Shown: piece by piece, positions 612 through 63,673 of the stretch | Position numbering within the stretch: position 1 is the first letter of the stretch | How the letters are laid out: every line of letters begins with the position of its first letter | UHGV virus genome: UHGV-1497419 | Length of the DNA: 64,000 bases | Reading direction: 5' to 3' (one strand) | From: a virus | The notes under the pieces: model-generated | What the model saw: only the letters and a program-made list of their open reading frames with translations | Database searches by the model: none | Told to the model about the DNA's origin: nothing | Position numbers and translations under genes: made by a program

Positions 612-2978
612 TTAATCGTAAATTGTAGTCCCTTCTGGAACACATTTTACATCAAAGCCTAAGAACTTACTCACTTCGATGGGTGACACTTTATTCCAAT
701 CTAAATGAGAAAGCAAGAAGTTTTCTTGTTTTCTTTTTGAAAGGTAGTTTGTCACCTTAATGACCATACGGTCACCAGCTTTCTTAATTTTCTTGTACAG
801 CTTTGTATCATTGTCAAGGCATTCTTTCAAAGTTTGCAATCTACTAACAGTGTAAGTGTATGCAAACGGTGCAGCAACGTATTGGATTTTACCGAACATT
901 GCCTCTACAGCCTCTTCATTACCTTCTAGGAAGATAGTTTTGTTTGTATCCCGTGAATAGCAATAACCACGAGAAATCTTCCTATTATTGAATGTAAAGT
1001 TTCTGGCAATAATCCAGCTACTTGTAAGGTCAAGAACACCATTCATGTAGATGCGTGTCATATACCTGTTATGATTAATCCAATGAACATCAGTTAAGCT
1101 GTCGTTCAAGAGCTTCTCATCTACTTCAATCCAGTCTTCTGGTATCTTTTTCCAATTTGCTTTTCGGAAAACATAGACTGTCTTTCCAATAACATTAGCA
1201 ACTGACTTAGCTACATCTTCTGGGGATGAGCAAAAACATTCACCATCAACTGTGTCACCAATTGCCTTAATGTAAAGCTGAGGTTCTTCAATTGTGTCTA
1301 AGTCCTCTGACACCTCTTTGTAGGAGGCTACACCTTCTGCTGGAACAGCTTTCCAGAGTTTTACAACACCTCTTACAGCTTCTTTACGCTGGTAATGGTG
1401 TTCCTTATCAGACATTTTCACAATCTTTAACAAGCTTTTATCAAGTTTGTGTAGATTGATTAAATCATCTAACTCTTTTTCAGTCGAGAATACAAACACA
1501 ATACCATTATATCTGTGAAACAGACTGGACTCACTGGCGTAGTCTCGACATGCACCACGCAGAATCTGATTGCGTCCTACAGTCTTCTCAGTTCCGTTTT
1601 TATTGCGACGGTCATTAATCACGAACAAAAACTGTTCAATTTGGCTTTTACGCATTGCACCAAAGATATTGAACATACTTGCCTCTTGAGTGTAGGAAAG
1701 TGCTGTTGCACGAATCTTACTCTCTAAAGAGTTGAACTTAACATAAGCAACTGGGTTATAAAGATAATCTACTTTAGGAATGTTGTTTCCGTTCCTATCA
1801 ACCTTAATATTACCTTTACCGTCACGTTCATAAATAACTGAGCCGTCTTCTGCGTAGATAATCCCACGACGAATGTTTAGCAATTCTTCTTCCAGAGAAT
1901 CAAGCTTAACACCGCCCCACTCTAGCTTTGGACACACAGCATTAAACATCTCTCGTGAGTTCAAACGTAACTCAGCATAAGCCTGTGCAGCATCCATGAG
2001 TGTAGGTTGGTTATTAACTTTCTTGATAACATCCTTTGTAATGGCTTCAGTTATCTTTTTGGTAGCCTCAATGATGACATTTTTTGTCGTATCATTCATC
2101 TGCAATGCTTCACGAGAAGCTGCAATAGCAACTGAACCAATAGGCATGTAGATGTTTACAAGGTCTACGCTCCTACGGAAAAATTCTGGCAATACTTTGA
2201 AGAAATCATCACCAAGTAATGCTTCCATGTTAACAGGGTAGGCAATGTTACCCATCACCACATTAAACTCTGTCCTGTTATCACTAGAACGCCAGCTTAG
2301 CTTATGAATCATGGCATCATAAACACCCTCTTCACGGGCAATGACGTTCATATCTGCTAATACATCGTTGTACACAATATTACTTTCTGGTTTTACAGCA
2401 AAGTATGAGTATACATTACCAGCTTCTTCAAAGAACTTTGAGATACGGTGGTCAGCAACTGCCACACGTACAGCTAAACCATTAGGTTCTTTTGTTGGGT
2501 TAGTTGTCAGCTTAGTTACTTGAGGAATACCATTCTCAAGATAAACAGAGTACTTATTAACAACACCATCAACATAGCTAGATACTGTGAATGACTGAGC
2601 AATTGCAAATGGTGACTTTGAGCCGATACCCATTGCACCAATGTAATCATTAGAGTCATTCTTCGTAGAAGCTCCGTAGTTCAGATACAAACTCATTACT
2701 TTGTCATGGGTTAAACCAGTTCCAAAGTCACGGACTTCAAAGTAAGGCTCAAACCGAGTAGGTAAATGCACATGGAACGGGATGTTCTCTTTTCCAGCTT
2801 CTTTCTGAGCATCTACTGCGTTACATGACAGTTCACGAATAACTGCCCTTTCTTTAAATGTGTATACACCAGAACTCAAAAGGCTGAACATTTCAGGTGT
2901 CATTGTAATCTGTGCTTGAGACGTCTCTAAAGAAGTTGAACTCTTAATCACTTCTGCGTGGTCGTTTACCATGCGCAT
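612..2978 (-). CDS. rIIA: rIIA-like membrane-associated protein with GHKL-type ATPase N-terminus
   Basis: 788 aa; blocks ERAVIRELSCNAVDAQ, RDFGTGL, SNDYIGAMGIGSKSPF and SVAIAASREALQMND match what I recall of T4 rIIA (N-box and G-box of a histidine-kinase-like ATPase). Confidence 0.75.
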   Translation of the reverse strand: MRMVNDHAEVIKSSTSLETSQAQITMTPEMFSLLSSGVYTFKERAVIRELSCNAVDAQKEAGKENIPFHVHLPTRFEPYFEVRDFGTGLTHDKVMSLYLNYGASTKNDSNDYIGAMGIGSKSPFAIAQSFTVSSYVDGVVNKYSVYLENGIPQVTKLTTNPTKEPNGLAVRVAVADHRISKFFEEAGNVYSYFAVKPESNIVYNDVLADMNVIAREEGVYDAMIHKLSWRSSDNRTEFNVVMGNIAYPVNMEALLGDDFFKVLPEFFRRSVDLVNIYMPIGSVAIAASREALQMNDTTKNVIIEATKKITEAITKDVIKKVNNQPTLMDAAQAYAELRLNSREMFNAVCPKLEWGGVKLDSLEEELLNIRRGIIYAEDGSVIYERDGKGNIKVDRNGNNIPKVDYLYNPVAYVKFNSLESKIRATALSYTQEASMFNIFGAMRKSQIEQFLFVINDRRNKNGTEKTVGRNQILRGACRDYASESSLFHRYNGIVFVFSTEKELDDLINLHKLDKSLLKIVKMSDKEHHYQRKEAVRGVVKLWKAVPAEGVASYKEVSEDLDTIEEPQLYIKAIGDTVDGECFCSSPEDVAKSVANVIGKTVYVFRKANWKKIPEDWIEVDEKLLNDSLTDVHWINHNRYMTRIYMNGVLDLTSSWIIARNFTFNNRKISRGYCYSRDTNKTIFLEGNEEAVEAMFGKIQYVAAPFAYTYTVSRLQTLKECLDNDTKLYKKIKKAGDRMVIKVTNYLSKRKQENFLLSHLDWNKVSPIEVSKFLGFDVKCVPEGTTIYD

Positions 2979-3010
2979 AATACTTTCCTCTTAGTTTACT
3001 GTTAAATCAC

Positions 3011-3183
3011 TTATTAAACATTTTACCAGAACCACCACAAATAGGGCAACAACCTGCTCTTGTATACCCTTCTCCGTTACAGTAGTCACACTTTTTGTGT
3101 TCTGCAAAGTACTTACAAAGAAGGCAAACAAATATTGCTACACTACCAAGTGACAGTAAAATTTCTATCCAATACGCTTGCAT
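3011..3183 (-). CDS. Small membrane protein with C-terminal CxxC...CxxC zinc ribbon
   Basis: Manual translation MQAYWIEILLSLGSVAIFVCLLCKYFAEHKKCDYCNGEGYTRAGCCPICGGSGKMFNK; below the 60-aa cutoff of the ORF track. Confidence 0.3.
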
Positions 3184-3500
3184 GACTCACCTCTCATATT
3201 CTTGTAAAGGATAAAGCTTCTGTCATGGACGATACTTGTAGACACTGCAAAGTTACTTTCAAGCATCTGTTTGTTTGGATTGTAGAAGCTTTCTTTAAAC
3301 TCGTCAAGTGCAAATTGGTGATGTTGCGGAAGACCTTTTACACAGACCTTTATTGTGATTGCTGCTGCGACCTTGCCAGTCAGTTCTTCTTGAGCTGCTA
3401 CCAAGATTTTGTTAAGGAACTTATGACCATCTTCAGGCTTCTTGATGTTCTCCCAACGTTCTTCTAAGACAATGTTGATGTTCATCTCTTTGATTTTCAT
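3165..3500 (-). CDS. Hypothetical protein
   Basis: 111-aa ORF co-oriented with flanking genes. Confidence 0.4.
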   Translation of the reverse strand: MKIKEMNINIVLEERWENIKKPEDGHKFLNKILVAAQEELTGKVAAAITIKVCVKGLPQHHQFALDEFKESFYNPNKQMLESNFAVSTSIVHDRSFILYKNMRGESCKRIG

Positions 3501-28407: not shown

Positions 28408-28595
28408 ACAAAGAAGATAAGCATAAAAATGCTGTACGAACTCCTGATGGGAAGATTCAATCATTCACCCTGACAGTTGGTGGAAAGCCATTCCGTTGCC
28501 ACTGCGGAGCAAACTGCTTTCATAAACCAGATAAAAATGACTTAGAGCTTTACGCATGTAATGCTTGCAATACTTGGTATCATTCAGAGGAATAA
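28404..28595 (+). CDS. Small zinc-ribbon protein
   Basis: 63 aa; CHCG...CNACN cysteine pairs. Confidence 0.35.
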   Translation: MNKEDKHKNAVRTPDGKIQSFTLTVGGKPFRCHCGANCFHKPDKNDLELYACNACNTWYHSEE

Positions 28596-28596
28596 A

Positions 28597-29697
28597 ATGA
28601 CAATTCTGTACAAACAAAATAAAGATGGTTCCTTCAACGTCTGGTCATGTGTTGCTGTAGGTGACAAAGTTATTACAACCTACGGTAAAGAAAATGGCAA
28701 GATGATGTTTGAAGAGTACACAGCAGAGCCTAAAAACATCGGTAAAAAGAATGAGCGTAACGCTGAACAACAAGCTCTCTTTGAAGTTGCTGCTAAGTAT
28801 AAAAAGCAAGTAGACCGCAAAGGTTATGCTTACACAAAAGAGTCTGCACAGAATACTGAGAAGGTAGGTGTACAGCTTGCTCATGATGCTGCAAAGGTTA
28901 GCCATGCAAAGTATCTGAAGTTCCCTGCTGATGCTCAACCAAAACTTGATGGTGTCCGTTGTAGGATTTCAAGAGATGCTGATTTAGTTAGTTTTACGGC
29001 TTATTCTCGTGAGAATACTGTTTACAACGTTCCAGCAGAACTAATTCCAGATTTGCTTTTGTTGCTTAAATTACATCCACAAGTTGAAGACTTTGATGGT
29101 GAGATTTATGCTCATGGTTGGGACTTAGAAGATATTGTATCTATGATTAAGAATGCTGACAATCCAGACCGTCACCTTCTTAAATTCTACTGGTATGATA
29201 TCTGCGACAATTCAAAATCTTGGCCTGAGCGTCGTGAAGTTATTGATAACTCACCTATTGTTGAGCTTGGGGATACCTGTAGAGTTGTTCCTGTGCAGAC
29301 TATCCGTGTAAATTCTTGGGAAGAGTTTGATGAAGCTCATGATAAGTGGGTTGAAGCTAAGTTTGAAGGTGCAATGTACCGTTCAATCTCTGAAGACTCC
29401 TTCTACGAGTGTTGTCACCGTTCATACTTCTTGATTAAGCACAAGAAGATGCACACTGAAGAGTTTAAAGTAACTGGTGTAAAGACTGATAAACGTGGTC
29501 ATGGTAAGTTCGTTGTAGAGACTCTTCCTAACGTCTTTGTAGATGTCTCATGGAAAACCACTCATGAGAAAAAGCAGTATCTGGCTGAGCATCCTGAAGA
29601 GTTTATCGGGAAGCCTTTAACGGTTCAGTTCCAGAAGATGACTCGTAAGGGGTCTTTACAGTTCCCTGTTGGGTTAGTTATTAGGGATTATGAGTAA
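28597..29697 (+). CDS. ATP-dependent DNA ligase
   Basis: Motif I KLDGVRC, motif III DFDGEIYA, motif IV EGAMYR, motif V FLIKHKK. Confidence 0.85.
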   Translation: MTILYKQNKDGSFNVWSCVAVGDKVITTYGKENGKMMFEEYTAEPKNIGKKNERNAEQQALFEVAAKYKKQVDRKGYAYTKESAQNTEKVGVQLAHDAAKVSHAKYLKFPADAQPKLDGVRCRISRDADLVSFTAYSRENTVYNVPAELIPDLLLLLKLHPQVEDFDGEIYAHGWDLEDIVSMIKNADNPDRHLLKFYWYDICDNSKSWPERREVIDNSPIVELGDTCRVVPVQTIRVNSWEEFDEAHDKWVEAKFEGAMYRSISEDSFYECCHRSYFLIKHKKMHTEEFKVTGVKTDKRGHGKFVVETLPNVFVDVSWKTTHEKKQYLAEHPEEFIGKPLTVQFQKMTRKGSLQFPVGLVIRDYE

Positions 29698-29704
29698 AAA
29701 GTTG

Positions 29705-29732
29705 TTGACATAGAAAATTTGGTGAGTATACT
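29705..29732 (+). promoter_or_regulatory. Sigma70-like promoter reading into repeat array A
   Basis: TTGACA - 16 nt - TATACT. Confidence 0.55.
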
Positions 29733-29769
29733 GAGCAGCATAAACCAACGGGTACTCACCAACACCCCT

Positions 29770-30078
29770 TAAGAGTCTTTGAAAAGGGTTTTTAAGTGAT
29801 GTGGGGCGAGGCTCGGTGAGGTGGGGTAAGGCATAGTGCGGTGCTGTTTGGTATGGGTAGTTAGTCTCAGCTACATTAAAATGAGACTTACCTTTTTAAA
29901 GGGTCTTTAAACAGGGTCTTTTAATAAGGTTGTGTGATGTGATGTATGGTGCTGTGGAGTTTGGTTAGGTCCGGTCAGGTATGGTATGGTGATGTGAGGT
30001 ATGGGTGGATGGTAGTAGCCACGTTAAAAATCTACCAAGTTTCTAAAGAGTCTTCTGTTGAGGGTTCTTTATAAACAA
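29770..30078. repeat. Composite repeat array A: GGTCTTT-type direct repeats, two GT-rich tracts with 5-nt GG periodicity, conserved hairpins
   Basis: Order is Y-like / GT tract 1 / hairpin X (GTAGTTAGTCTCAGCTACATTAAAATGAGACTTACC) / Y (GGGTCTTTAAACAGGGTCTTTT) / GT tract 2 / hairpin X' / Y-like; no ORF on either strand. Confidence 0.6.
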
Positions 30079-30094
30079 CTTAACAATCAATTAA

Positions 30095-30700
<606 letters not shown>

Positions 30701-30702
30701 TT

Positions 30703-31143
30703 ATGAATACAAAAGCATTAGCAGCAAAGTTTAGTTACGGTGACACTGTATCACACTCTGAGATGGATACCTTCTTAGGTATTGTGAAGCCAACTTATCA
30801 AGGTGACATTGTTAAGTACGAAGATGAAATGAAGGCTTATGCACTTACACGTCTAAACCGACTTGAGAAGTTTATTGAAAAGCTTCTTAAAGAAGAGAAG
30901 ATTTATCTGGTTGCTTCAATGGGTGTTGGTTATCGTGTTGTTGAACCTAAGCATCAAGCAACTATTGCAAAACGTAAAATGTCTGGTAAGATTGGTCGAG
31001 CTTTAAAGCAAGCCACTCAAGCGATTGAGAATGTGAACACTATGGCACTTAGCCATCAAGAACGTTCACGACTGATTGAACAGCAAAACCACTTAGCTGC
31101 TATGAAAGCTAACATTAACAAGCAACGTAGAAAACCTTTCTAA
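30703..31143 (+). CDS. Hypothetical protein (second gene of repeat-flanked cassette)
   Basis: 146-aa ORF, translationally coupled; basic C-terminus. Confidence 0.45.
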   Translation: MNTKALAAKFSYGDTVSHSEMDTFLGIVKPTYQGDIVKYEDEMKAYALTRLNRLEKFIEKLLKEEKIYLVASMGVGYRVVEPKHQATIAKRKMSGKIGRALKQATQAIENVNTMALSHQERSRLIEQQNHLAAMKANINKQRRKPF

Positions 31144-31153
31144 GTTGACTAGG

Positions 31154-31177
31154 TAGCCTCTTCGGAGGCTCCTTTTT
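31154..31177 (+). terminator. Rho-independent terminator after cassette
   Basis: AGCCTC-TTCG-GAGGCT hairpin followed by TTTTT. Confidence 0.6.
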
Positions 31178-31440
31178 AAAAGGTCTTTAAACAGGGTCTT
31201 TTAATGAGGTTATGTATGGTTTGGTTGGGTGTGGTGGTGTAAGGTGTAGTCAGGCTTGGTGAGGGTAGTTAGTCTCAGCTACATTAAAATGAGACTTACC
31301 TTTTTAAAAGGTCTTTAAGAGGGTCTTTTAACAAGGTTAGGTTAGGTCTGGTGTGGTAGGGTTAGGTGGGGTTAGGTTTGGTGTGGTATGGAAGGATGGC
31401 AGTAGCCTTATAAAAAATCTGCCAAATAAGCTATAAAGTC
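31176..31440. repeat. Composite repeat array B (paralogue of array A)
   Basis: Same Y / GT tract / hairpin X / Y / GT tract / hairpin X' order; hairpin X is identical to the array A copy; GT tract 2 reads (GGTNN) about 12 times. Confidence 0.6.
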
Positions 31441-31442
31441 TG

Positions 31443-31477
31443 TTGACAAGTCAGGTGTTATAGCTTATTTTTATACT
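31443..31477 (+). promoter_or_regulatory. Sigma70-like promoter upstream of secreted-protein gene
   Basis: TTGACA - 17 nt - TATTTT, with TATACT immediately after. Confidence 0.45.
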
Positions 31478-31515
31478 CAATGTAATACAAAATTTAATAT
31501 AACTTTGAGGTCATT

Positions 31516-31899
31516 ATGAAAAAGATTTTATTAGCTGCTGCAATGGTTATGGCAATGAATTTACCAGTCAATGCAACAGAACTTCCAAATGTGGACTTAT
31601 CAGGTGTTCCAGAAGACACTTGCCAGATTGTAAAAGGTGTTGCTCTAGCTAATGGTGAGTTACTTAAACCCATCTCTGAAGAGTCTTTGACAGAGATGAC
31701 TGATAAGGTGACTGACTACCAGTATCGTGTTCTTGCAGAGTATTTCCTGCAATCTGCAAACATTAAAGAGAAACACCATGACGATATTGATGTACAGGCG
31801 ATGCTCAACCACCGTATCCAGTTTAAAGAAGATTTGATGCAAAAAGCTATGTATGGTGTGGAGTATTTCTTAGAAAACAGAAGCTGCACAGGTATTTGA
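31516..31899 (+). CDS. Secreted/periplasmic protein with Sec signal peptide
   Basis: MKKILLAAAMVMAMNLPVNA followed by a likely cleavage site; 127 aa. Confidence 0.5.
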   Translation: MKKILLAAAMVMAMNLPVNATELPNVDLSGVPEDTCQIVKGVALANGELLKPISEESLTEMTDKVTDYQYRVLAEYFLQSANIKEKHHDDIDVQAMLNHRIQFKEDLMQKAMYGVEYFLENRSCTGI

Positions 31900-31900
31900 T

Positions 31901-32113
31901 ATGGCTCTTAAAAAGTTACATCCCAGAAGCGGTTATGGTAAGATAATTGACGATACAGACGGATTTACAGTCTTTACAGTTATCTGTCAAGATGATTCAC
32001 AGATTGAAAAGGCTCTTGATGATTATCTTAATGATGAACGTGAAAAGGTTAGGGCTACAAACATAGATTCATTGATTGACACTTCACGCAAACGGAAGAA
32101 GAAAGATGAATGA
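31901..32113 (+). CDS. Hypothetical protein
   Basis: 70-aa ORF. Confidence 0.3.
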   Translation: MALKKLHPRSGYGKIIDDTDGFTVFTVICQDDSQIEKALDDYLNDEREKVRATNIDSLIDTSRKRKKKDE

Positions 32114-32405
32114 GGTTTTTGACCCTTATGCCCCACAAGATGATTGGGAGGCTGATAGAGAGGCTGAAATGGAGAGTTATATTTGTCCAATGGATGTAAA
32201 CGAAATGAGAGACTTCGTTGCACATCGTTTTAAGAGAGAGATTAAATCCAGAGGTCTTTCTCAAGAGCAAGTTGCTAAAATTTGTGGTATCTCTCAGGCT
32301 CGTGTATCCAACATAATCCATCTCACTGGTAACGTCTCCCTTGAGTATATGTTGGAAGTATGTGAAAAATTTGGTGTTAATTTCAATTTAAGGTTGGCAG
32401 ATTAA
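32109..32405 (+). CDS. Helix-turn-helix (XRE-like) DNA-binding protein
   Basis: LSQEQVAKICGISQARVSNI matches an HTH pattern; start set at MNEVFD. Confidence 0.45.
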   Translation, partial: NEVFDPYAPQDDWEADREAEMESYICPMDVNEMRDFVAHRFKREIKSRGLSQEQVAKICGISQARVSNIIHLTGNVSLEYMLEVCEKFGVNFNLRLAD

Positions 32406-35681: not shown

Positions 35682-38066
35682 TTAAGCAGTTCTTACCCAA
35701 GCCATTAACTTATAGAACTGGTTAGTAACACTAAATGCTGAACCAGAACCAGTACCACCTGTGTTACCACTAACTGTATGGGTGTGAGCACCAATACCTA
35801 CAGAGTGGGTGTGAGCACCAGTGTTACTTGTAGTACCAGACCATGTGTGTGTATGGTTACCAGTTGTGTTAGTGTTAGGGAACTTGTTATCAGTTCTGTC
35901 AAGCCAGTCAAGAGTTCTCGTCTTGTTATTGCTAACAGTTGTATAACCGTACTGAGCATCACCACCATTAACCAATAGCAGACCTAAGTGGTGAGCGTGG
36001 TTACCAGCAGCACTTGTTGTGCCACTTACAGAGTGAGTATGACCACCAGTGCTATTAGTGCTCTTCGTACCATAATCGAAAGACGAAGTGGTAGCAGAGA
36101 AACTATGGGTGTGTGATGGTAAGTTACCAACAGCTAACGTCACAGAGTCTGAACCGCCTGTTGTAGCAACATCTGAACCATTTGCTGCTGCAATTCTGAT
36201 AGTTCTACCAACACCATTGTTCAGGTACGTCCAAGTTAACCCAGGAAGTGCTGTATTAGGGTCAACATTACTGTTAAACCACGTTACAATACCTACTGGA
36301 TAGATTTTATTAAGGTCTGTAGAGTCACTTACTGCCTGTGCAATCTTCTGGTCAGTTTCAGCTTTAGTGTATGCACCAATCTCTGAAGGGTTTGGTCTCT
36401 GAGCTTCAGTGTAAACCTTAGACCATTCAGCCTCAAAACCCTGCCTATCTCTGGCTGTTCTATACCATAAACCACTATTCCTGTAATCAAACCTTAATTG
36501 TGCAGTTGGTGTTGATGCTAACATATTAGCGAATAGGTGTAAGACTAAACGGCTTGAACCACCACCCTTGATAGTCTCTACATAAATTCCTGAAGGTTGG
36601 TTCCAAGCCACACCACCATCAGACTCCTCCACTAAAGCTCTGGATGCTGACCATAAGTACTTTGCATCGGTTGCAGATTTAACGTAGTATCTATCATCTA
36701 AGTTAGACCAATCAGATGGTTGTACCTGACCAGTGATTCTAACAGTTTTATTCAGTAAGAAATCACTCCCCATGTAAATGGTGGTAGCAGTCCTGTCATT
36801 GTGAATAATGAGTCTGGTCGGGTCTGCTGTTTCTCCATTCCCAATATACCACCTTCTCACATCGTCAGCATTATGGGCAGAGAGATACACCTCTTTATCC
36901 TGAATAGTATTCCTTAGTTGCAATAATGGGCCATTCTGTTTAATAACCTGTGCAGACCTGAAAGTGTTTACATCACTTAGCTTAGCAAGATTACTCAAAG
37001 TTCCTGCTGGAATATATCTAGAGTCGATGTTAGTCCAATCAGAAGGTTGAACTTGACCAGTGATTTGGACTGTTCTGCTCATGGCAATGGTGTTACCTAG
37101 TGAGATTTGTGTATTTGCTAAGTAGTTATAGATGTTTACAGTGTTTTCATCGGTATCATTACCAATATACCACTTACGAGTTCCATCTGATTTTTTTGCT
37201 TGGATATACAAAGCAGCAGTTGTATCTACATTTTGCAGAGTGATAGCATTAGCATTCTTCTTAACAACAAAGTTAGTGAAAATATTAGAGCCACTAAAAG
37301 TATTATCACCAGCTAACTGTGCAAATCTCTGATTAGCTACTGTCTGAGTAAAGTATCTAGCATCTAAGTTAGAGAAGTCAGAAGGTTGAACTTGACCCAT
37401 GACTCTTAGTGTCTTGTTAAATGACGCTGTTGCGTCAAGGGTTAACATTGAGCCAGTGGCATGATTGTACAGATAAACATTAGTGTTGTTTGCATTTCCC
37501 TGTCCAACATACCACGTTTGCTGGTTATTAGCATCTCTACCCTGAATATATGAAGCTCCTGCATTAGTTGCTTTCTTAAGGGTTAACTGCTCACCATCAG
37601 TTACAATTGCTTGCCTAATGTTGAAGTTATTTGTTACAGCCAGCCTTGCATATCTTGCATCATTCTCTTCATTAGTTCTCATCCCAAGTTCATTAGGGCT
37701 TGGTTTATTCAGAGTATGATAAACAGTTGCCGACCTTGAAGCATCTGCAATAGTTAGCTTAAGACCGTTTGCGTTAATTTTAAAAGTCTTTAAAACATCC
37801 CCGATAGTAATCTCAGAAGAACCTGTTGGGTCAAATACTGCCTTACCGCCATAGAGTAACTTAACAATCCCTAAGTCACCTGTCATAGTACTACCAGCAA
37901 TCTGAACAAATCTCTCAAGTTTAAAAGATGCTAAGAAGTCTTGATAGGTCATTCGACGGTCTTCATCACCCAGCATTTCAGGTCTCTTTTTAACTCTGAC
38001 ATGAAGAAGGTCATCTGAACGGATTGTATCGATTGAGTTTAATTCACTCAATTTGTAATCTGCCAT
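35682..38066 (-). CDS. Long tail fibre protein with His-rich C-terminal tip domain
   Basis: Three internal QVQPSD(F/W)(S/T)N(L/I)D(A/S/D)RY repeats; C-terminal HTHS...GNHAHH...GNHTHTW...[18 protein letters not shown] repeats like the T4 gp37 tip; track start is TTG, trimmed to ATG behind GAGAGG. Confidence 0.8.
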
Positions 38067-38086
38067 TATAAATTTTCCTCTCAAAA

Positions 38087-38102
38087 GGGGCTATAAAGCC
38101 CC
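38087..38102 (-). terminator. Hairpin GGGGCTATAAAGCCCC between the two tail fibre genes
   Basis: Perfect stem plus U-run on the minus transcript. Confidence 0.45.
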
Positions 38103-38112
38103 TGTAAAGAAA

Positions 38113-39300
38113 TTAAGCTGTTCTCTGCCATACATACAGTACGAAGGATGGCTGCTCAATGTTGAAAGCTTGTCCACCACCAACACTATTCGTGTTTCCA
38201 CTATGTGTATGCTCAGAAGAAGAAACTGTCACAGTACCGTTGTGTGTATGTGAACCAATACCAACTGTATGGCTATGAGCACCAATACCCACTGTGTGAT
38301 TGTGGTTACCAGTTGTGTTAGTGGTAACGCTAAAAGAGTGGGTGTGCGAACCAGCGACTTCGCAGACAGCATCTGCTGAGTACCACGATTGGTCATTCCT
38401 TGTAGACCAAACCATTGCAGGTCTTTCCGACAGACCACCACCTGCTTCATAAGTCAATCTGTGGTTGTGAGCACCAGCAGCACTTGTTGACCCACTACCA
38501 ACGTGATTGTGGTTACCAGTTGTGTTAGTGGTCTTTGTTCCATAGTCAAAAGAGTTGGTAGTCTTAGTTCCATAGTCAAAAGCTGAGATTGAAACAGTTG
38601 CATTATGAGTGTGACCACCACCACTGAGAGACACAGAGTGTGAGTGTTGAGGCATATTATTAACTGACAAAGTGACAGTTGAAGCACCAAATACAGAACC
38701 TGCTGGCCTTGTATCAGAGTCATAACCAACCAACGCCATACCTTTTGAAACTAACTCCCAAGTACCTCCACAAATTAAGTATGTAGAGGGGTTTGCAGAG
38801 TTCATCGAAAGATGGATAGTACCTACTGGATAAGAAGCCTGAACAGCCTTGTACAAGTTATTTACTGCTCTTGCTGTAGCATACTTATCTGCATCCTCGT
38901 TATACAGGTTAGATGTTGTCCAGTTCTGAACATTACTTAAACCAACCTGTGCCTTAGTTGTATTGTGTGGGTTACTCTTGTCCTTGATATGTTGCTGGAC
39001 AAGGCTATTAACCTCTTCTGAAGACATAATCTGTAGATTTGCTCTTGCCTCAGCTACATTAACAATATCTGATAAGTTATTTGCAGCAACTAACTGAAGA
39101 GCATTAATAACATTATCTAAACCAATTTGTGTTTTAGTAACACCATGAGGGTTATTTTTTAGGCTTGCGTGTGGAGCAAGTAATTGCTCAAGAGTACACC
39201 TCTTATCCTCAATACCCTGCTTAAGATGGAAGATATCACTAAGGTCAATTGGTAAGGCTGCTTGAGGCAAGGCACTAATTTGAATTTCACCTACTGCCAT
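38113..39300 (-). CDS. Tail fibre protein (paralogue sharing the His-rich C-terminal domain)
   Basis: C-terminal GSHTHSFSVTTNTTGNHNHTVGIGAHSHTVGIGSHTHNG...; both fibres end in ...W(V/Q)RTA. Confidence 0.75.
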   Translation of the reverse strand: MAVGEIQISALPQAALPIDLSDIFHLKQGIEDKRCTLEQLLAPHASLKNNPHGVTKTQIGLDNVINALQLVAANNLSDIVNVAEARANLQIMSSEEVNSLVQQHIKDKSNPHNTTKAQVGLSNVQNWTTSNLYNEDADKYATARAVNNLYKAVQASYPVGTIHLSMNSANPSTYLICGGTWELVSKGMALVGYDSDTRPAGSVFGASTVTLSVNNMPQHSHSVSLSGGGHTHNATVSISAFDYGTKTTNSFDYGTKTTNTTGNHNHVGSGSTSAAGAHNHRLTYEAGGGLSERPAMVWSTRNDQSWYSADAVCEVAGSHTHSFSVTTNTTGNHNHTVGIGAHSHTVGIGSHTHNGTVTVSSSEHTHSGNTNSVGGGQAFNIEQPSFVLYVWQRTA

Positions 39301-39302: not shown

Positions 39303-47318
<8,016 letters not shown>

Positions 47319-59021: not shown

Positions 59022-59097
59022 TGGAGAATCCGAAGGGACTCGAACCCTTATAAACCTGTTTTGCAGACAGGCACATAGCCATTTCTGTCACGGATTC
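59022..59097 (-). tRNA. tRNA-Cys (anticodon GCA)
   Basis: Manual cloverleaf: acceptor GAAUCCG/CGGAUUC, anticodon loop CUGCAAA, T-arm AAGGG-UUCGAGU-CCCUU, CCA encoded. Confidence 0.7.
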
Positions 59098-59101
59098 AAA
59101 T

Positions 59102-59194
59102 TGGAGGAAGATACCAGACTTGAACTGGTACACCGATTTCTCAGCTACTGGCAGTTTAGCAAACTGCTCCCTTACCTTTTAGGGTTAATCTTCC
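59102..59194 (-). tRNA. tRNA-Ser (anticodon GCU), long variable arm
   Basis: Acceptor GGAAGAU/AUCUUCC, anticodon loop UUGCUAA, long variable arm, T-loop UUCAAGU; 93 nt. Confidence 0.65.
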
Positions 59195-59196
59195 AT

Positions 59197-59931
59197 TTAT
59201 TTCTGTAATGCGCTCTTCATTTCTGGTGTTGCAATAGTGTCAATCACACCAGTTTTACAGGCATCATCAAACCAGTCTGGTAAGATACCTGCTAAGAACC
59301 CATTGATATTCGTTTTAAGGTACTCTGCAATAAGGGCAGCTTCTTCTTCAATCATCTGCACAACTTCATCTGCATAAGCTGTAATCTTTGAAATACCTTC
59401 ATTAATCTTACTAACAGCCTGATTAGCTAAATCAGAAACAGTATCAAGACCCTTATCAATAGCATCTTGCAAGTCACTTAACACACCATTAACACTATCT
59501 AGTGTACTGTTCATCATGTCAATAGCTTTTTGACCATACTCTGTAGCAACACCCATGATACCACTGAATGGTGTACAACCAACTTGTTCTCCTGCTGCAC
59601 CCATAACATTGGAATACCCCTTTGCTACCTGCATACGTGATGAAAACTCATCAATAGACTTTTGACCGTAGTCTGTCAGAGTTTTAGTAGTTGCTGTAGT
59701 GCTTGTAAGGCTTGTTGTAAAGCTGTTTAGAAGGACTGTTGTAAGTCCAGCAGCAACAAGTTTCTCCTTCATTGTAGGGTCTGTTACAGAACTAATAGAG
59801 CTTACAAGTGATGTAGAAGCAGCTACGGTTCCACCGAGAACTGCTGCACCAGTAATAAGTGGGTTAGAGAACCCTTTACCGGTTTTTAAGAGATTAAAAA
59901 TCTCCTTACCTTGTTCTGTCATCTCTTTCAT
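59197..59931 (-). CDS. Hypothetical Ser/Thr/Ala-rich protein embedded in tRNA cluster
   Basis: Track ORF trimmed to the ATG behind AAGGTG so it does not overlap tRNA-Phe. Confidence 0.35.
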   Translation of the reverse strand: MKEMTEQGKEIFNLLKTGKGFSNPLITGAAVLGGTVAASTSLVSSISSVTDPTMKEKLVAAGLTTVLLNSFTTSLTSTTATTKTLTDYGQKSIDEFSSRMQVAKGYSNVMGAAGEQVGCTPFSGIMGVATEYGQKAIDMMNSTLDSVNGVLSDLQDAIDKGLDTVSDLANQAVSKINEGISKITAYADEVVQMIEEEAALIAEYLKTNINGFLAGILPDWFDDACKTGVIDTIATPEMKSALQK

Positions 59932-59947
59932 TAAGCACCTTTGAAAT

Positions 59948-60024
59948 TGGTAGTCCAGTGGGATTTGAACCCTCTTCTCATGTTTTTCAGACACGCGCTT
60001 TAACCATATAAGCTACTTGGACTA
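59948..60024 (-). tRNA. tRNA-Phe (anticodon GAA)
   Basis: Acceptor UAGUCCA/UGGACUA, anticodon loop CUGAAAA, T-loop UUCAAAU. Confidence 0.65.
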
Positions 60025-60029
60025 TAAAT

Positions 60030-60105
60030 TGGGGTGACCTACGGGATTTGAACCCGTATAGACCATGTTCACAGCATGGGTCATTACCATTTATGATAAG
60101 GCCAC
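60030..60105 (-). tRNA. tRNA-His (anticodon GUG)
   Basis: Acceptor GUGGCCU/AGGUCAC, anticodon stem CCAUG/CAUGG, loop CUGUGAA. Confidence 0.7.
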
Positions 60106-60136
60106 ATTTAAGGACTCTCGCAAGAATCCTTAGAAG

Positions 60137-60212
60137 TGGCAGCGGCATAAGGATTTGAACCTTAATAGGACAGCTTCAGAGGCTGCTGCATTGCCAGTTA
60201 TGCTATACCGCT
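60137..60212 (-). tRNA. tRNA-Gln (anticodon CUG)
   Basis: Standard 76-nt cloverleaf; anticodon loop UCUGAAG gives CUG at positions 34-36. Confidence 0.6.
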
Positions 60213-60217
60213 AAATT

Positions 60218-60296
60218 TGGTACTCCATATCGGATTCGAACCGATACATAACACAGATTTTAAGTCTGGCCTCTCTGCCAATTGGAGTAATGGAGC
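60218..60296 (-). tRNA. tRNA, class I length, anticodon read as UAA (isotype uncertain)
   Basis: Clear acceptor stem and T-arm (AUCGG-UUCGAAU-CCGAU); best anticodon loop CUUAAAA; no long variable arm expected of tRNA-Leu. Confidence 0.45.
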
Positions 60297-60298
60297 AT

Positions 60299-60374
60299 TG
60301 GCGGGGGATGTTGGAATTGAACCAACTTCTTCGATTTCAAAGACCGAGGTTTTAACCTTGTAAACTAATCCCCT
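60299..60374 (-). tRNA. tRNA-Gln (anticodon UUG), with A1-C72 mismatch
   Basis: Anticodon stem UCGGU/AUCGA, loop CUUUGAA, T-loop UUCAAUU. Confidence 0.55.
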
Positions 60375-60382
60375 TTAAATCT

Positions 60383-60940
60383 TTACTTTCTCAGTGGATG
60401 AATAAAGAATGCCAACATAACTCTTTCCCTTGAGAATGCTCTTTCTTCTGGGACAACACTTTTTAGTTTCCATCCAATATAAATTCTCCAGTAAAATTGT
60501 TTACCAAAGATTTTAATTGATGGGATAAAAGCGAATAATCCCCAAGCATTACTGTTCCACATTAGGAGATAACCTGTCTGATTATCTTCGGGGTCAGAAC
60601 TTACGTTGATATTACCTTTCCACTTAGTAACATCTTTTACATCTCTTCCTAATACATGGTAAGAGAAGTTATAAGCTTTGTTTCTCCAGAGCCATCCAAC
60701 TCTCTGCATGTAGACACCTAGCTTACCAATCTTTCTAATCTTAGCCCATCTTTTAACGTGGCCTTCATCACCATCAATCGGGTTGTCATAGGTCTCCATC
60801 CATCTGAATCCAAAAGGTAGATGTCCTTTCTTCTCACTGTAGAATGGAACTACGAAAGGTGCTAAGATGACTGCTATGGTTGCTGCAAATGGTTCTAACA
60901 AAGCTAAGAAAATCCATGAAACATATTTTAAGTATCTCAT
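60383..60940 (-). CDS. Hypothetical membrane protein within tRNA cluster
   Basis: 185 aa; hydrophobic N-terminal segments; GAGGG ribosome-binding site. Confidence 0.35.
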   Translation of the reverse strand: MRYLKYVSWIFLALLEPFAATIAVILAPFVVPFYSEKKGHLPFGFRWMETYDNPIDGDEGHVKRWAKIRKIGKLGVYMQRVGWLWRNKAYNFSYHVLGRDVKDVTKWKGNINVSSDPEDNQTGYLLMWNSNAWGLFAFIPSIKIFGKQFYWRIYIGWKLKSVVPEERAFSRERVMLAFFIHPLRK

Positions 60941-61179
60941 TGTCTAACCCTCGTAAGGAGGTAAGCATTATTATTTGTTTCTGAGCTTTCTGGTAACATT
61001 GTCTCAAAATTGATGCTTTTAAGTTGTCTTCCACCAAAGCAATGACCAATAAATCTTTCTACTTTTATTGGGTCGCATTCCCATCCGACTTTCAAGAAAA
61101 TGTGGGTATCTATAGTGGGAACCCTTACAAACTCAATACTATTGGGATTTTCATGTTCAACGACGATTAATGTTTGCAT
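60937..61179 (-). CDS. Hypothetical protein within tRNA cluster
   Basis: 80 aa; AAGAGGAA ribosome-binding site. Confidence 0.3.
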   Translation of the reverse strand: MQTLIVVEHENPNSIEFVRVPTIDTHIFLKVGWECDPIKVERFIGHCFGGRQLKSINFETMLPESSETNNNAYLLTRVRQ

Positions 61180-61197
61180 AAATTCCTCTTGCTTATC

Positions 61198-61273
61198 TGG
61201 CGCAGGATAAGGGATTCGAACCCCTATTAACAGCTTCGTAGACTGTTGCTCTATCCATTTGAACTAATCCTGC
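61198..61273 (-). tRNA. tRNA-Arg (anticodon ACG)
   Basis: Acceptor GCAGGAU/AUCCUGC, anticodon stem ACAGU/GCUGU, loop CUACGAA. Confidence 0.7.
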
Positions 61274-61278
61274 AAAAT

Positions 61279-61356
61279 TGGTGTTCCAAGACGGATTCGA
61301 ACCGTCACTAGTACAAGGTTTGAGCTTGCATCCTCTGCCAATTGGGATACTGGAAC
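61279..61356 (-). tRNA. tRNA, class I length, anticodon read as CAA (isotype uncertain)
   Basis: Acceptor and T-arm (GACGG-UUCGAAU-CCGUC) are clear; anticodon stem GCAAG/CUUGU with loop CUCAAAC. Confidence 0.45.
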
Positions 61357-61357
61357 A

Positions 61358-61432
61358 TGGTACTCACTAAAGGACTTGAACCTTTTTCTTCATCTTGTAA
61401 GGGTGATGTTTTACCATATAAACTAAGCGAGT
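61358..61432 (-). tRNA. tRNA-Val (anticodon UAC)
   Basis: Standard cloverleaf: D-stem GUUU/AAAC, anticodon loop CUUACAA, T-arm AAAGG-UUCAAGU-CCUUU. Confidence 0.6.
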
Positions 61433-61528
61433 ATGAAAGAGGTCTGAAGTTGTGCCGCTAACTCAACTCCGTGGAATTTGTTACGGTCTTCAGTTGACTC
61501 AAAGCGGTCTTTCACTTGACCTCTGAAT

Positions 61529-61605
61529 TGGTGCTGCTCACAGGACTCGAACCTGCATTTCCATCCTTACAAGGGATGTGTAATAGCCAATTATACGAAA
61601 GCAGC
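61529..61605 (-). tRNA. tRNA-Thr (anticodon UGU)
   Basis: Acceptor GCUGCUU/GAGCAGC, anticodon stem CAUCC/GGAUG, loop CUUGUAA. Confidence 0.7.
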
Positions 61606-61611
61606 ATTGTT

Positions 61612-61686
61612 TGGAGCATCCAGAGGGAATCGAACCCTCAACCTCAGTTTGGAAGACTGTAATTTTCCCGTTTAAACTATGGATGC
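61612..61686 (-). tRNA. tRNA-Gly (anticodon UCC)
   Basis: Acceptor GCAUCCA/UGGAUGC, anticodon loop CUUCCAA, T-arm GAGGG-UUCGAUU-CCCUC. Confidence 0.6.
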
Positions 61687-61692
61687 ACTAAT

Positions 61693-61768
61693 TGGTGGAG
61701 AAGCAGGGAATTGAACCCTGTACTTAAGTTTGCAAAACTTATGTTTTAACCATGTAAACTACATCCCC
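61693..61768 (-). tRNA. tRNA-Ala (anticodon UGC)
   Basis: Anticodon stem UAAGU/ACUUA, loop UUUGCAA; G3-U70 wobble pair in the acceptor stem, the Ala identity element. Confidence 0.65.
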
Positions 61769-61774
61769 AATGTT

Positions 61775-61850
61775 TGGTACAGGTGGAGGGAATTGAACCC
61801 ATCGTCTTACTGATTAAGAGTCAGCCGCATAACCATTTTGCTACACCTGC
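61775..61850 (-). tRNA. tRNA-Lys (anticodon CUU)
   Basis: Anticodon stem GCUGA/UCAGU, loop CUCUUAA. Confidence 0.6.
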
Positions 61851-61857
61851 ATTAATT

Positions 61858-61935
61858 TGGTAGGAGACAAGGGATTCGAACCCTCAAACACCAACTTCTA
61901 AGGATGGTAGGTTTACCAATTACCGTCAATCTCCC
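61858..61935 (-). tRNA. tRNA, class I length, anticodon read as UAG (isotype uncertain)
   Basis: Acceptor GGGAGAU/GUCUCCU, T-loop UUCGAAU, anticodon loop CUUAGAA; D-arm irregular. Confidence 0.4.
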
Positions 61936-62190
61936 ATTAAATCTTTTTAGAGAACTTCTAAGAACCTAAGCAACAAGGTTCCACAACAAGCTGTAATAAC
62001 CTTAGAAGCCCTCTAAAAAGACCTAAAAAGGTCTTTGCATAGTCTTGTTTAATCCGGTGACTAGAACCTTTGGAGAGCTTGATATTATCTCTTCTCCGTG
62101 ACACCTACTAGGTGCTTTATCAGTGTGTACGACAATACACGCGGGATACCAAAGCGACATCCGAATGAAGCTTGGCTTTAAATCTTATTA

Positions 62191-62280
62191 GGCGGTAAGT
62201 AAAGGAGTCGAACCCTCACCGTATCTCTACAGTGGCAACAGTTTTCAAGACTGTTTGGCTGCCATTAGCCGCTACCTACC
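62191..62280 (-). tRNA. tRNA-Ser (anticodon UGA), long variable arm, CCA not fully encoded
   Basis: Acceptor GGUAGGU/ACUUACC, anticodon stem ACAGU/ACUGU, loop CUUGAAA, long variable arm, T-loop UUCGACU. Confidence 0.55.
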
Positions 62281-62293
62281 CCTAATAAGACTT

Positions 62294-62376
62294 TGGCATG
62301 GGACGGAGGAGTTGAACCCCTTTGAAACGGTTTTGGAGGCCGTTGCTCATGCCTTAGAGTCTTAACATCGTCCCAT
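62294..62376 (-). tRNA. tRNA-like gene, possibly tRNA-Trp (anticodon CCA) with expanded D-loop
   Basis: Acceptor AUGGGAC/GUCCCAU and CCA end are clear; best anticodon loop CUCCAAA; D region about 7 nt longer than canonical. Confidence 0.4.
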
Positions 62377-62518
62377 ACTATAATTCGAAGCTTACCGTAT
62401 TATCTCAACACTGTAAAGCCCCTTCTCAGATTATTTACATGTTCTGGAAAACATGAGATACAGACCACCTCCCTACACGGAGACCCACTAAGGTCGTCTA
62501 AGTAATCTGCTAACTAAT

Positions 62519-62595
62519 TGGCACACCCTACAGGATTCGAACCTGTAACTAACGATTTAGAAGACCGTTGCTCTATCCAATTGAACTAAGGGTGC
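62519..62595 (-). tRNA. tRNA-Arg (anticodon UCU)
   Basis: Acceptor GCACCCU/AGGGUGU, anticodon stem ACGGU/AUCGU, loop CUUCUAA. Confidence 0.7.
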
Positions 62596-62887
62596 ATTAA
62601 TCTTTAAAGACTCTCTTAGAAAGCCCTTAAAGATGCCCACCTTATTAATCATACCGTGGGCTAGTACGCCAAATTCTTTGATGAGGGATTGGAAGACCTC
62701 ACTGGTGTTTAGCCTATCAAGCTACTGCCAGAAAAACATTGTCGTTTGCATTTATTTTAAATTTGCAAAATAGACGCTACGCAACGAAAACTATTCAGAA
62801 TATGTACAACAAATTTCCCCACATTGTGTTACGTCTAACGCTCATGTATTGGTGTTTGAATTATACATATTATGAAGTATTTTAGTT

Positions 62888-62916
62888 ACTATAAAATAGT
62901 CACATCTCAGTGTCAA
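62888..62916 (-). promoter_or_regulatory. Sigma70-like promoter inside tRNA cluster
   Basis: Minus strand reads TTGACA - 17 nt - TATAGT; transcript would include a ~280-nt leader and tRNA-Arg(UCU). Confidence 0.5.
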
Positions 62917-62931
62917 CAACTTTATTGAAAT

Positions 62932-63007
62932 TGGTACTGGTAGGTGGAATCGAACCACCGATGTTCCCTTATCAGGGGAGTGTTATAACCTTCTTAACTA
63001 TACCAGC
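62932..63007 (-). tRNA. tRNA-Ile (anticodon GAU)
   Basis: Acceptor GCUGGUA/UACCAGU, anticodon loop CUGAUAA, T-arm GGUGG-UUCGAUU-CCACC. Confidence 0.65.
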
Positions 63008-63008
63008 T

Positions 63009-63085
63009 TGGAGGTTCAGATGGGAATCGAACCCACATTCATAGGGCTTATGAGACCCTTGCATTACCTTATCTGCGACTGAACC
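63009..63085 (-). tRNA. tRNA-Met (anticodon CAU; initiator, elongator or Ile-lysidine not distinguished)
   Basis: Acceptor GGUUCAG/CUGAACC, anticodon stem AGGGU/GCCCU, loop CUCAUAA. Confidence 0.65.
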
Positions 63086-63089
63086 ATTT

Positions 63090-63165
63090 TGGTAGAAGTG
63101 GAGGGATTCGAACCCATCGCCTGTCAGATTAAAAGTCTGCCGCATCACCATTCTGCTACACTTCC
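63090..63165 (-). tRNA. tRNA-Lys (anticodon UUU)
   Basis: Acceptor GGAAGUG/CACUUCU, anticodon loop CUUUUAA. Confidence 0.65.
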
Positions 63166-63172
63166 ATTAAAT

Positions 63173-63307
63173 TATCTTTGTAGATAAGCTACCCAGACTT
63201 GCTTAAGGTCTGTAGCGATGTGTCTTTTCGGGTTAAATCTAGAATCCACCCTTCACCTTTGTGGTCGCATACTCACAGGGAAGCTTAATAACTTATCTAC
63301 AAAGATA
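63173..63307. repeat. Perfect 16-bp inverted repeat pair (TATCTTTGTAGATAAG / CTTATCTACAAAGATA) separated by 103 bp
   Basis: Exact reverse complements at 63173-63188 and 63292-63307, each followed by CCAGAC; no ORF or tRNA between them. Confidence 0.6.
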
Positions 63308-63360
63308 ATTACCAGACCGTTGTTTATCATCTTAAGTGCTACCATTACACCAACTCGACA

Positions 63361-63404
63361 TCTGCCGAGTGAAGGAATCGAACCTTCGCCTTTTCTTTAC
63401 CGAG
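63361..63404 (-). pseudogene. tRNA 3'-half remnant (T-arm plus acceptor 3' strand without matching 5' half)
   Basis: Perfect T-arm GAAGG-UUCGAUU-CCUUC then ACUCGGC, but no complementary 5' acceptor strand or anticodon arm upstream. Confidence 0.35.
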
Positions 63405-63422
63405 AAATATATTGTTTAAGTT

Positions 63423-63450
63423 TTGCTGTAAACGGTCTTCTGTAAATTTG
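63423..63450. repeat. 28-nt motif TTGCTGTAAACGGTCTTCTGTAAATTTG, copy 1
   Basis: Identical to 63965-63992; a partial variant lies at 63507-63531. Confidence 0.6.
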
Positions 63451-63668: not shown

Positions 63669-63673
63669 TTTAT

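Follow-up and report, generated by a model that had tools for sequence, protein, structure and literature searches.

The region at positions 29770-30078 of UHGV virus genome UHGV-1497419 is, in our view with high confidence, the upstream vrRNA array, with two guides, by which a Felixounavirus equips its type II VIPR (Viral Interference Programmable Repeat) system. The DNA analysed was one stretch of 64,000 nucleotides, hereafter called the window, which is that of a Felix O1-like myovirus. The surrounding region is 99.4% identical to Escherichia phage vB_EcoM_ULIM8 and is matched by 244 phage records. The array consists of two units, in each of which a leader resembling a hairpin is followed by a (GGTNN)n tract and then by a conserved tail, and lies 3′ of a near-consensus promoter. 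A second two-unit array of the same build is found at 31171-31423, beyond a 195-amino-acid gene and a 146-amino-acid gene, and the two arrays (A and B) flank both genes. An earlier description made from the letters alone (the sequence-only reading) had stated that no phage element with such a layout was described. That statement is outdated, as VIPR vrRNA arrays are the subject of a 2026 preprint. The array is therefore not a new kind of element but one that became known very recently.

VIPR was first described in bioRxiv 10.64898/2026.04.26.720920 (version June 2026), which gives the following account. The phage encodes a homologue of RAMP proteins, named Vipr (~20 kDa), together with an accessory protein named Vap and the vrRNAs, which contain 9-16 YNNGG repeats (conserved GGY, hypervariable NN) and an invariant 3′ tail. 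In the SUSP1 clade this tail is a hairpin plus a pseudoknot. The model locus belongs to Escherichia phage SUSP1, of the same subfamily, and has one vrRNA 5′ and three vrRNAs 3′ of vipr-vap1. The SUSP1 vrRNAs are ~100 nucleotides long, contain repeats and tail, and co-purify with Vipr; their expression was shown by small-RNA sequencing. They read double-stranded DNA via the NN positions, on either strand and with no protospacer-adjacent motif (PAM), and one target base is skipped per repeat. Binding represses transcription, vap1 enhances protection, and SUSP1 guides with reprogrammed NN positions retarget repression. Among the 20 SUSP1-clade guides with identifiable targets, 18 match an E. coli satellite phage (bioRxiv 10.64898/2026.04.26.720920).

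Array A is situated between the DNA ligase gene (28561-29697, plus strand) and the 195-amino-acid open reading frame (ORF; 30113-30700), within a plus-strand gene block that begins with DNA polymerase. The intergenic regions flanking vipr and the 146-amino-acid gene are 415 and 372 bp long. When the sequence was re-read, the succession of tracts, hairpins and Y elements given in the sequence-only reading was present at the positions it gives, as was its promoter pointing into the array. The features of the locus are as follows.

29705-29732, plus strand: promoter P1, TTGACA-16-TATACT, 11/12 consensus matches, pointing into the upstream vrRNA array and vipr.
29768-29796, plus strand: leader or Y-like element 1 (CTTAAGAGTCTTTGAAAAGGGTTTTTAAG), which may form an RNA hairpin and adjoins the repeats on their 5′ side.
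29795-29856, plus strand: vrRNA A1 guide region, 12 GGYNN pentamers (29795-29854) plus a closing GG.
29855-29897, plus strand: vrRNA A1 3′ tail, hairpin X, a hairpin plus pseudoknot with a terminator-like T-run.
29893-29927, plus strand: element Y (TTTTTAAAGGGTCTTTAAACAGGGTCTTTTAATAA), spacer or leader between the guides, with two GGTCTTT copies 13 nucleotides apart.
29928-30004, plus strand: vrRNA A2 guide region, 15 GGYNN pentamers (29928-30002) plus a closing GG.
30003-30036, plus strand: vrRNA A2 3′ tail, hairpin X′, a hairpin plus pseudoknot.
30045-30074, plus strand: third Y-like element (AAGAGTCTTCTGTTGAGGGTTCTTTATAA), 5′ of the vipr ribosome-binding site and kept after every A-type X′ tail.
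30113-30700, plus strand: vipr, 195 amino acids, predicted RAMP fold with a C-terminal G-rich loop.
30703-31143, plus strand: vap1-type accessory gene, 146 amino acids, 99% identical to the SUSP1 gene at the equivalent position.
31155-31177, plus strand: intrinsic terminator after vap1 (AGCCTCTTCGGAGGCT followed by a T-run), from a terminator scan.
31173-31305, plus strand: unit B1, with Y at 31173-31207, 11 pentamers at 31208-31262, an X-type tail at 31263-31300 and a T-run at 31301-31305.
31301-31423, plus strand: unit B2, with Y at 31301-31334, 11 perfect GGT pentamers at 31335-31389 and an X′-type tail at 31390-31423.
31443-31471, plus strand: promoter P2, TTGACA-17-TATTTT, inside a long hairpin and driving the next gene.

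The proteins encoded between the arrays are nearly the same as those of the model system. The Vipr and Vap1 proteins of the window share 190/195 (97%) and 145/146 (99%) residues, respectively, with their counterparts encoded at the vipr and vap positions of SUSP1, and the SUSP1 record has the same gene order (ligase, array, 195-amino-acid gene, 146-amino-acid gene, array). The GGY/NN pentamers, both tail types and the kind of satellite target are shared as well. In contrast, SUSP1 carries 1 + 3 guides and the window 2 + 2, and the NN strings differ, and therefore so do the targets. In addition, SUSP1 is placed in Suspvirus, whereas the phage of the window is a Felixounavirus. The product of vipr is predicted to be a small RAMP-fold protein encoded beside the repeats; this fold comes from a model based on a multiple sequence alignment, which replaced a single-sequence AlphaFold model (pLDDT 44). 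The 146-amino-acid Vap1-type protein had no Pfam match and falls into PHROG 5926, of unknown function. The locus is thus a minimal vipr + vap pair with long non-coding flanks. This sets it apart from the Class 1 CRISPR backbone (Cas7, Csm3 or Cmr4 on CRISPR RNA): by the definition in the available text of the preprint, a VIPR cassette contains only vipr and vap and lacks the multi-gene cas set of a CRISPR locus (no search specific for cas1 or cas2 was made in the window). There are also no CRISPR repeats. Moreover, the VIPR guide is non-contiguous, using 2/5 of the guide bases and 2/3 of the target bases where CRISPR uses 5/6, and it is phage-encoded and aimed at a satellite. A CRISPR array had also been considered for the region itself and was rejected. 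Such an array would have identical direct repeats of 23-50 nucleotides between unique spacers of fixed length, with cas1/cas2 close by. The units here are 127-146 bp long, the variable part is itself a 5-nucleotide repeat and there are just two genes at the locus. No CRISPR repeats emerged from repeat and Rfam scans, and no CRISPR family reached the Rfam threshold.

The 5-nucleotide period in G that the sequence-only reading had pointed out was clearly recovered. G autocorrelation in tracts 1 and 2 peaked at lags 5, 10 and 15, and the period-5 Fourier power exceeded that of shuffles with z = 4.9 and z = 6.9, respectively (p <= 0.002), with no signal at periods 3, 4, 6, 7 or 10. The tracts of array B (31208-31262 and 31335-31389) gave z = 9.1 (B1) and 15 (B2). 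No period-5 G signal elsewhere in the 64-kb window is as strong as those of these four tracts, and nothing comparable was found on its C strand. Parsed in phase, A1, A2, B1 and B2 contain 12, 15, 11 and 11 pentamers, within the 9-16 of the preprint. The NN string of A1 reads GA GG GA TC GA GG AA AT GC GC TT AT. A search of other phage genomes recovered hairpin and tract units in related loci, and 59 unique tracts from 20 such loci served as our comparative set. The pentamer profile over these tracts was G.77, G.96, T.88 (C.11), N, N. The third position is therefore as conserved (T/C.99) as the GG. From phage to phage the NN positions vary extremely, in contrast to the nearly constant flanks formed by the Y elements and hairpins. 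Tract lengths range from 49 to 110 nucleotides, nearly all in one residue class modulo 5 per flank class.

These data bear on the two other functions that the sequence-only reading had offered for the tracts. Since GG recurs every 5 nucleotides in all four of them, tandem two-tetrad G-quadruplexes in DNA or RNA are formally possible, and the tracts might then act by pausing or regulation instead of as guides. We consider this very improbable: the pyrimidine after GG is conserved though needless for a quadruplex, the first G is conserved in only 77% of pentamers, pentamers that lack a full GGY still match targets at 0.84, and the NN 'loops' match satellite genes under a specific skip rule (see below). 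An iteron or other DNA array for protein binding would consist of motif copies that are alike. Here only 3/5 bases are conserved, the NN positions are hypervariable and match foreign genes, and the tail covariation includes G-U pairs, as in RNA; this candidate is not supported. Several further ideas would fail on the information in NN or on the conserved T. These were an R-loop origin, T7-type primase sites (GGGTC), Chi- or RecA-preferred GT-rich DNA, a TRAP-like sponge, pairing with tRNA CCA ends, a Shine-Dalgarno sponge, consensus-pause arrays and diversification resembling that of diversity-generating retroelements. A role in packaging or as a terminal repeat was likewise dismissed, with the physical ends of UAB_Phi87 lying near wV8 gp055 and far from gp094-097.

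The region had also been described as free of ORFs on either strand. This needs a small correction, as a 42-amino-acid ORF starting with ATG (29946-30074) overlaps tract 2, and the GenBank record of ULIM8 annotates a 'hypothetical protein' there (39509-39646). Judged by comparison between phages this ORF is spurious, because the 5-nucleotide length steps would shift its reading frame. RNA folding of the whole leader of array A was no stabler than that of shuffles (z = -0.3 and -0.7), and therefore the tracts alone are not structured RNA.

The tails, on the other hand, show conserved pairing. In hairpin X, AGTCTCA (29863-29869) pairs with TGAGACT (29882-29888) and TTTTT follows at 29893-29897, while GTAG (29857-29860) and CTAC (29871-29874) form the stem of a pseudoknot. 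The X tail was 100% paired across 12 variants. Three pairs of its hairpin covary, one of them with G-U (AGTCTCA/TGAGACT vs AATCGGA/TTCGATT in other units), and the covariation score was reached by 0/500 shuffles. In the X′ tail, which was also 100% paired, the pseudoknot stem is formed by GTGG (30005-30008) and CCAC (30019-30022) and the hairpin by GGTAG (30011-30015) and CTACC (30032-30036). Compared with the array-B version (AAGG/CCTT and GGCAG/CTGCC), covariation is seen at two pairs of the pseudoknot and one of the hairpin. Controls in which the partner was slid gave 23-44% pairing. An H-type pseudoknot combined with a hairpin thus accounts for both tail types, each helix showing compensatory changes, and forms an invariant 3′ tail of ~40 nucleotides, and the inclusion of G-U pairs in the covariation points to RNA.

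Hairpin X followed by TTTTT resembles an intrinsic terminator, and the annotators of ASO1B predicted one. It differs in its conserved 12-nucleotide loop, which pairs with the upstream GTAG in the pseudoknot, and X′ has no T-run. From its sequence, hairpin X would thus be first of all the handle of a vrRNA. The proposal of a GU-rich small RNA ending in the X terminator was the closest that the sequence-only reading came: homologous RNAs of ~100 nucleotides are reported for SUSP1 in the available part of the preprint. The guide role of NN and the RAMP gene had been missed.

The Y elements have the form TTTTTAAAAGGTCTTT-N3-5-GGGTCTTTTAAT and are near invariant in 34 variants, except for the 3-5 nucleotides between the GGTCTTT copies. 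Together with the related leader after P1 they stand directly 5′ of each guide and are strongly conserved. For element Y a 12-bp RNA hairpin with abundant G-U pairs can be drawn. The leader can form a 13-bp helix that was 99% paired across 10 variants, also with many G-U pairs and with a single covarying pair. On the basis of position and conservation, the Y elements and leader hairpins may be processing signals 5′ of the guides. As a candidate nut-like antitermination site, element Y (GGUCUUUAAACA) presumably also resembles the Nus-factor boxA (GCUCUUUAACAA-type, bound by NusB/NusE), from which it differs at a core position.

We then turned to the targets of the guides. The baseplate hub of the satellite is 72% identical to that of SUSP1 according to the available preprint text (bioRxiv 10.64898/2026.04.26.720920), and we therefore searched E. 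coli genomes with the baseplate region of the window (44294-45091). A chromosomal 'phage baseplate protein' gene matching this region was carried by 474 of 5,426 complete E. coli genomes (~9%), mostly at 80-96% DNA identity, with 159 matches in the 60-80% band. Tail genes of the satellite island are copies of those in this phage group. As the target set we used five such islands from E. coli (L140-L144, 62 kb in total). They are ~11-14 kb long, are integrated at yciI/tonB and other sites (e.g. NZ_CP064847.1 2642977-2654500) and encode small hypothetical proteins, an HNH endonuclease, tape-measure and baseplate proteins and a serine recombinase. Each of the five has unannotated gaps of ~1-2.5 kb. 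L143 bears a vrRNA-like tract of its own (2846-2934, minus strand), whose X′-like tail hairpin covaries (GTCG/CGAC replacing GGTAG/CTACC). This fits the remark in the available preprint text that some satellites encode their own vrRNAs (bioRxiv 10.64898/2026.04.26.720920).

With a 1-nucleotide skip, 38/59 guides reached an NN match of at least 80% in the satellites. Skips of 0, 2 and 3 nucleotides yielded 1, 0 and 2 such guides, respectively, and among the controls at the 1-nucleotide skip, shuffling of the NN order left 1 guide and 53 kb of chromosomal flanks gave 0. The skip rule of the preprint was in this way re-derived independently on our own set of 59 guides. Guide A1 matched at 21/24 positions inside the recombinase coding sequence of L140 and L141 and at 19/24 in L143. 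Guide A2 matched at 25/30 in the recombinase coding sequence of L142 and at 23/30 at the homologous site of L144, a different allele. The two target sites are as follows.

A1 target site: TGATGGAGAATCAGAGAGGAAGATTGCAGCGTT, in NZ_CP064847.1, recombinase IPT86_RS12830.
A2 target site: in NZ_CP076230.1, recombinase XF37_RS11860.

Both sites are in sense orientation, and the skipped base falls on codon position 3 (wobble). Shuffled guides reached the A1 score in 1/1000 trials and the A2 score in 0/1000. In all 1.3 Mb of fetched loci the recombinase sites were the top matches of A1 and A2, the next best being 18/24 and 20/30. No self-targets were found in the window, where the best matches (A1 17/24, A2 18/30) were at background level. 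The sites found here thus show the NN targeting, satellite targets and wobble skip base of VIPR, with no self-targeting. Internal pentamers matched their targets at 0.92-0.99 per position. The constant GGTAT pentamer beside the tail matched at 0.37, approximately chance, and without it A1 scored 21/22. This pentamer therefore appears to belong to the handle and not to the guide. From these matches, both guides of array A seem to be aimed at the serine-recombinase (integrase) gene of the satellite, A1 at one allele and A2 at another. A guide set aimed at the satellite integrase would make the element a phage weapon against the satellite, and the allele specificity for two integrase variants suggests that the multiplexed arrays track satellite diversity.

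The per-pentamer match also bears on a sponge RNA, that is, a series of TRAP-like sites for an oligomeric RNA-binding protein that titrates a host or phage factor. TRAP sites of Bacillus trp leaders consist of (G/U)AG-NN repeated 9-11 times, with the RNA wrapped by a protein multimer. A conserved triplet with a 2-nucleotide spacer, repeated 11-15 times, is much alike, and multimeric Vipr probably coats the repeats. However, pure binding sites would have uninformative spacers, whereas here 92-99% of the positions in internal pentamers match a satellite, and the partner protein is modelled with a RAMP fold and not the TRAP fold. Triplet and protein fold of VIPR are unrelated to those of TRAP, and the VIPR spacers carry the specificity and read DNA. 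We give the sponge hardly any credence.

For a VIPR array the locus would work as follows. P1 would transcribe array A, as is indicated by the promoter itself and by small-RNA sequencing of the SUSP1 orthologue in the available preprint text; the suggestion in the sequence-only reading that the array is probably transcribed holds to this extent. Each unit would yield an RNA of ~100 nucleotides with 11-15 GGY/NN pentamers and the invariant 3′ hairpin-pseudoknot tail, if length and processing follow those of SUSP1. By analogy with the system described in the preprint, Vipr copies would assemble along the repeats and grip the GGY triplets, and the NN positions would base-pair with double-stranded DNA so that two target bases are read for each one skipped (xNN xNN ...), with no PAM. 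Binding would then repress transcription, and the 146-amino-acid Vap1 would enhance the effect. Most likely, the phage uses its VIPR guides to silence a parasitic satellite element in E. coli.

Arrays hold 1 to 3 units each in the related phages. In about half of these phages the two-gene cassette is missing, and a single hybrid unit is left between P1 and P2 (ASO1A and BPS17L1). This orphan unit joins the left flank of array A to the right tail of array B (ASO1A, locus L016, 1298-1726; BPS17L1, locus L018, 898-1180). Mistaenkt, Mordin and SarahDanielle have no unit at all, and the element is therefore accessory. P1 is kept in relatives both with and without arrays. By tblastn, Vipr is encoded in 132 phage records, 118 of which are Ounavirinae at >90% identity. 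The array junction is matched by 244-261 records, and many phages therefore carry a unit with no vipr at any place in their genome. The guides of the orphan units had no match of at least 80% in the five islands. Orphan vrRNA units may be used in trans with Vipr from a co-infecting phage, may act as decoys against rival VIPR systems, or may be scars of cassette deletion by recombination between the flanking arrays.

This distribution is relevant to two more explanations. T4-type phages have promoter-stem-loop cassettes, and the arrays could similarly be recombination or regulatory modules that mediate gain and loss of the two genes they flank. The hybrid unit kept by cassette-free relatives and the variation from 1 to 3 units per array speak for such exchange. 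It is a side effect of repeat homology, however, and compatible with a guide function, and it leaves the GGY phasing, the tail structure and the target matches unexplained. As the primary role of the arrays it has very little probability, if marginally more than the others weighed here. The second explanation is a transcription-primed replication origin, in which transcripts from P1 form R-loops on the G-rich non-template strand, and iterons or primase sites are provided by the Y elements with their GGGTC. Such an origin would be in keeping with the strong promoter, the richness in G of the non-template strand, the repetition of units and the polymerase and ligase genes nearby. Close relatives lack the arrays, however, and others carry 1 to 5 units, so the element is dispensable. 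Moreover, strict 5-nucleotide phasing, a conserved T and RNA-type tail covariation with G-U pairs are not expected of an origin, and the NN positions match foreign genes. An origin is accordingly a most unlikely function for the region.

Assignment to VIPR has to be weighed against several points. Its source is a preprint without peer review (bioRxiv 10.64898/2026.04.26.720920), and the RNA ends and ribonucleoprotein formation that we propose for the phage of the window would be carried over from SUSP1. The matches of A1 and A2 are imperfect (88% and 83%), and five of ~474 satellites were examined. The best match of B1 (18/22) lies between annotated genes in L144 and is borderline (p ~0.01), and B2 had no target in the five satellites and no exact-pattern match in IMG/VR. 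In many related phages a lone unit persists although vipr is absent, and a guide without its protein requires a separate explanation. Finally, the Y elements and the leader hairpin are without mention in the available text of the preprint, and the covariation test of the leader, with its one pair, did not stand out from its shuffle control (85/500, not significant). The roles of the orphan units, the allele specificity of A1 and A2, the handle pentamer and the 5′ processing by Y and leader elements all go beyond that text, and we propose them, taken jointly, only tentatively.

The repeat pattern also extends to unrelated viruses. A scan of IMG/VR for seven in-phase GGT triplets returned at least 120 loci, and among the ~80 inspected were many unrelated viral contigs with degenerate (GGTNN)n arrays (e.g. 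L031, L038, L075 and L077). One unrelated contig (L041; IMGVR_UViG_3300025122_000199, 2200-3300) contains >13 tandem (GGTNN)10-15 units with a conserved 24-nucleotide spacer (GGAATGGTTTAATGAATTTAATT). The ORF directly upstream of that array (1575-2171) encodes a Vipr homologue (hhalign probability 99.1%, E = 1.5e-18). Vipr also has distant homologues, at 23-44% identity, in Listonella phage phiHSIC, Pseudomonas phage LESphi2, Gordonia phages and a Mycobacterium abscessus prophage (records AY772740.1, OQ594955.1, PQ184807.1 and OQ417975.1). GU169904.1, labelled 'Staphylococcus phage SA1' (147 kb), has a Vipr gene at 91679-92263 that is 99% identical to the Felix O1-like one. This record probably includes Felix O1-like sequence through contamination or chimeric assembly.

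Both promoters of the locus are associated with inverted repeats. The one at 29718-29763 covers the P1 spacer, the -10 region and ~+11 to +21 of the transcript (GGTGAGTA...TACTCACC). Its arms differ yet remain complementary in mistaenkt (CCGGTAGT...ACTACCGG; L019, 2598-2682) and in Mordin (CCTGACGGGT...ACCCGTCAGG; L020, 2598-2839), which suggests a conserved promoter-embedded hairpin or operator at P1. P2 is also buried in a long hairpin (31424-31470). A Cro/C1-type helix-turn-helix protein (Pfam HTH_3, E = 6e-10) is encoded at 32076-32405, ~0.6 kb 3′ of the VIPR locus, and may regulate these promoters and their embedded inverted repeats. Elsewhere in the window, a cluster of 23 tRNA genes, which is to be expected in a Felix O1-like phage, occupies 59022-63907 on the minus strand. 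Diverged direct repeats of 67-81 nucleotides occur at 35800-38600 on the minus strand, within and between two large ORFs (35682-38084 and 38113-39300) that are probably tail-fibre genes. The Felix O1 genome paper describes comparable repeats common to genes 76 and 77.

In existing annotation the region appears under various names: 'DR_4' in wV8, 'repeat_region' in tootiki and garuso, and 'terminator' for the tail in ASO1B. The genome papers of Felix O1 and UAB_Phi87 leave the repeats unmentioned. In Rfam at gathering thresholds the whole window gave only tRNAs, and an E-value scan of 29650-31550 returned one chance match. The GenBank labels and the spurious small ORFs could now be re-annotated as vrRNA.

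The value of these results lies in confirmation and not in discovery, for an element that was picked from raw sequence by a reader without tools. The central bioinformatic claim of the preprint, the 1-nucleotide skip and the targeting of satellites, was reproduced on 59 independent guides and five satellites. VIPR is a newly reported class of RNA-guided DNA recognition that is proposed to be older than CRISPR, and the window contains a natural locus with four guides that encodes proteins sharing 97-99% identity with their counterparts in the model system. Felix O1-like phages that are candidates for therapy or biocontrol carry a programmable silencing system against satellites found in ~9% of complete E. 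coli genomes.

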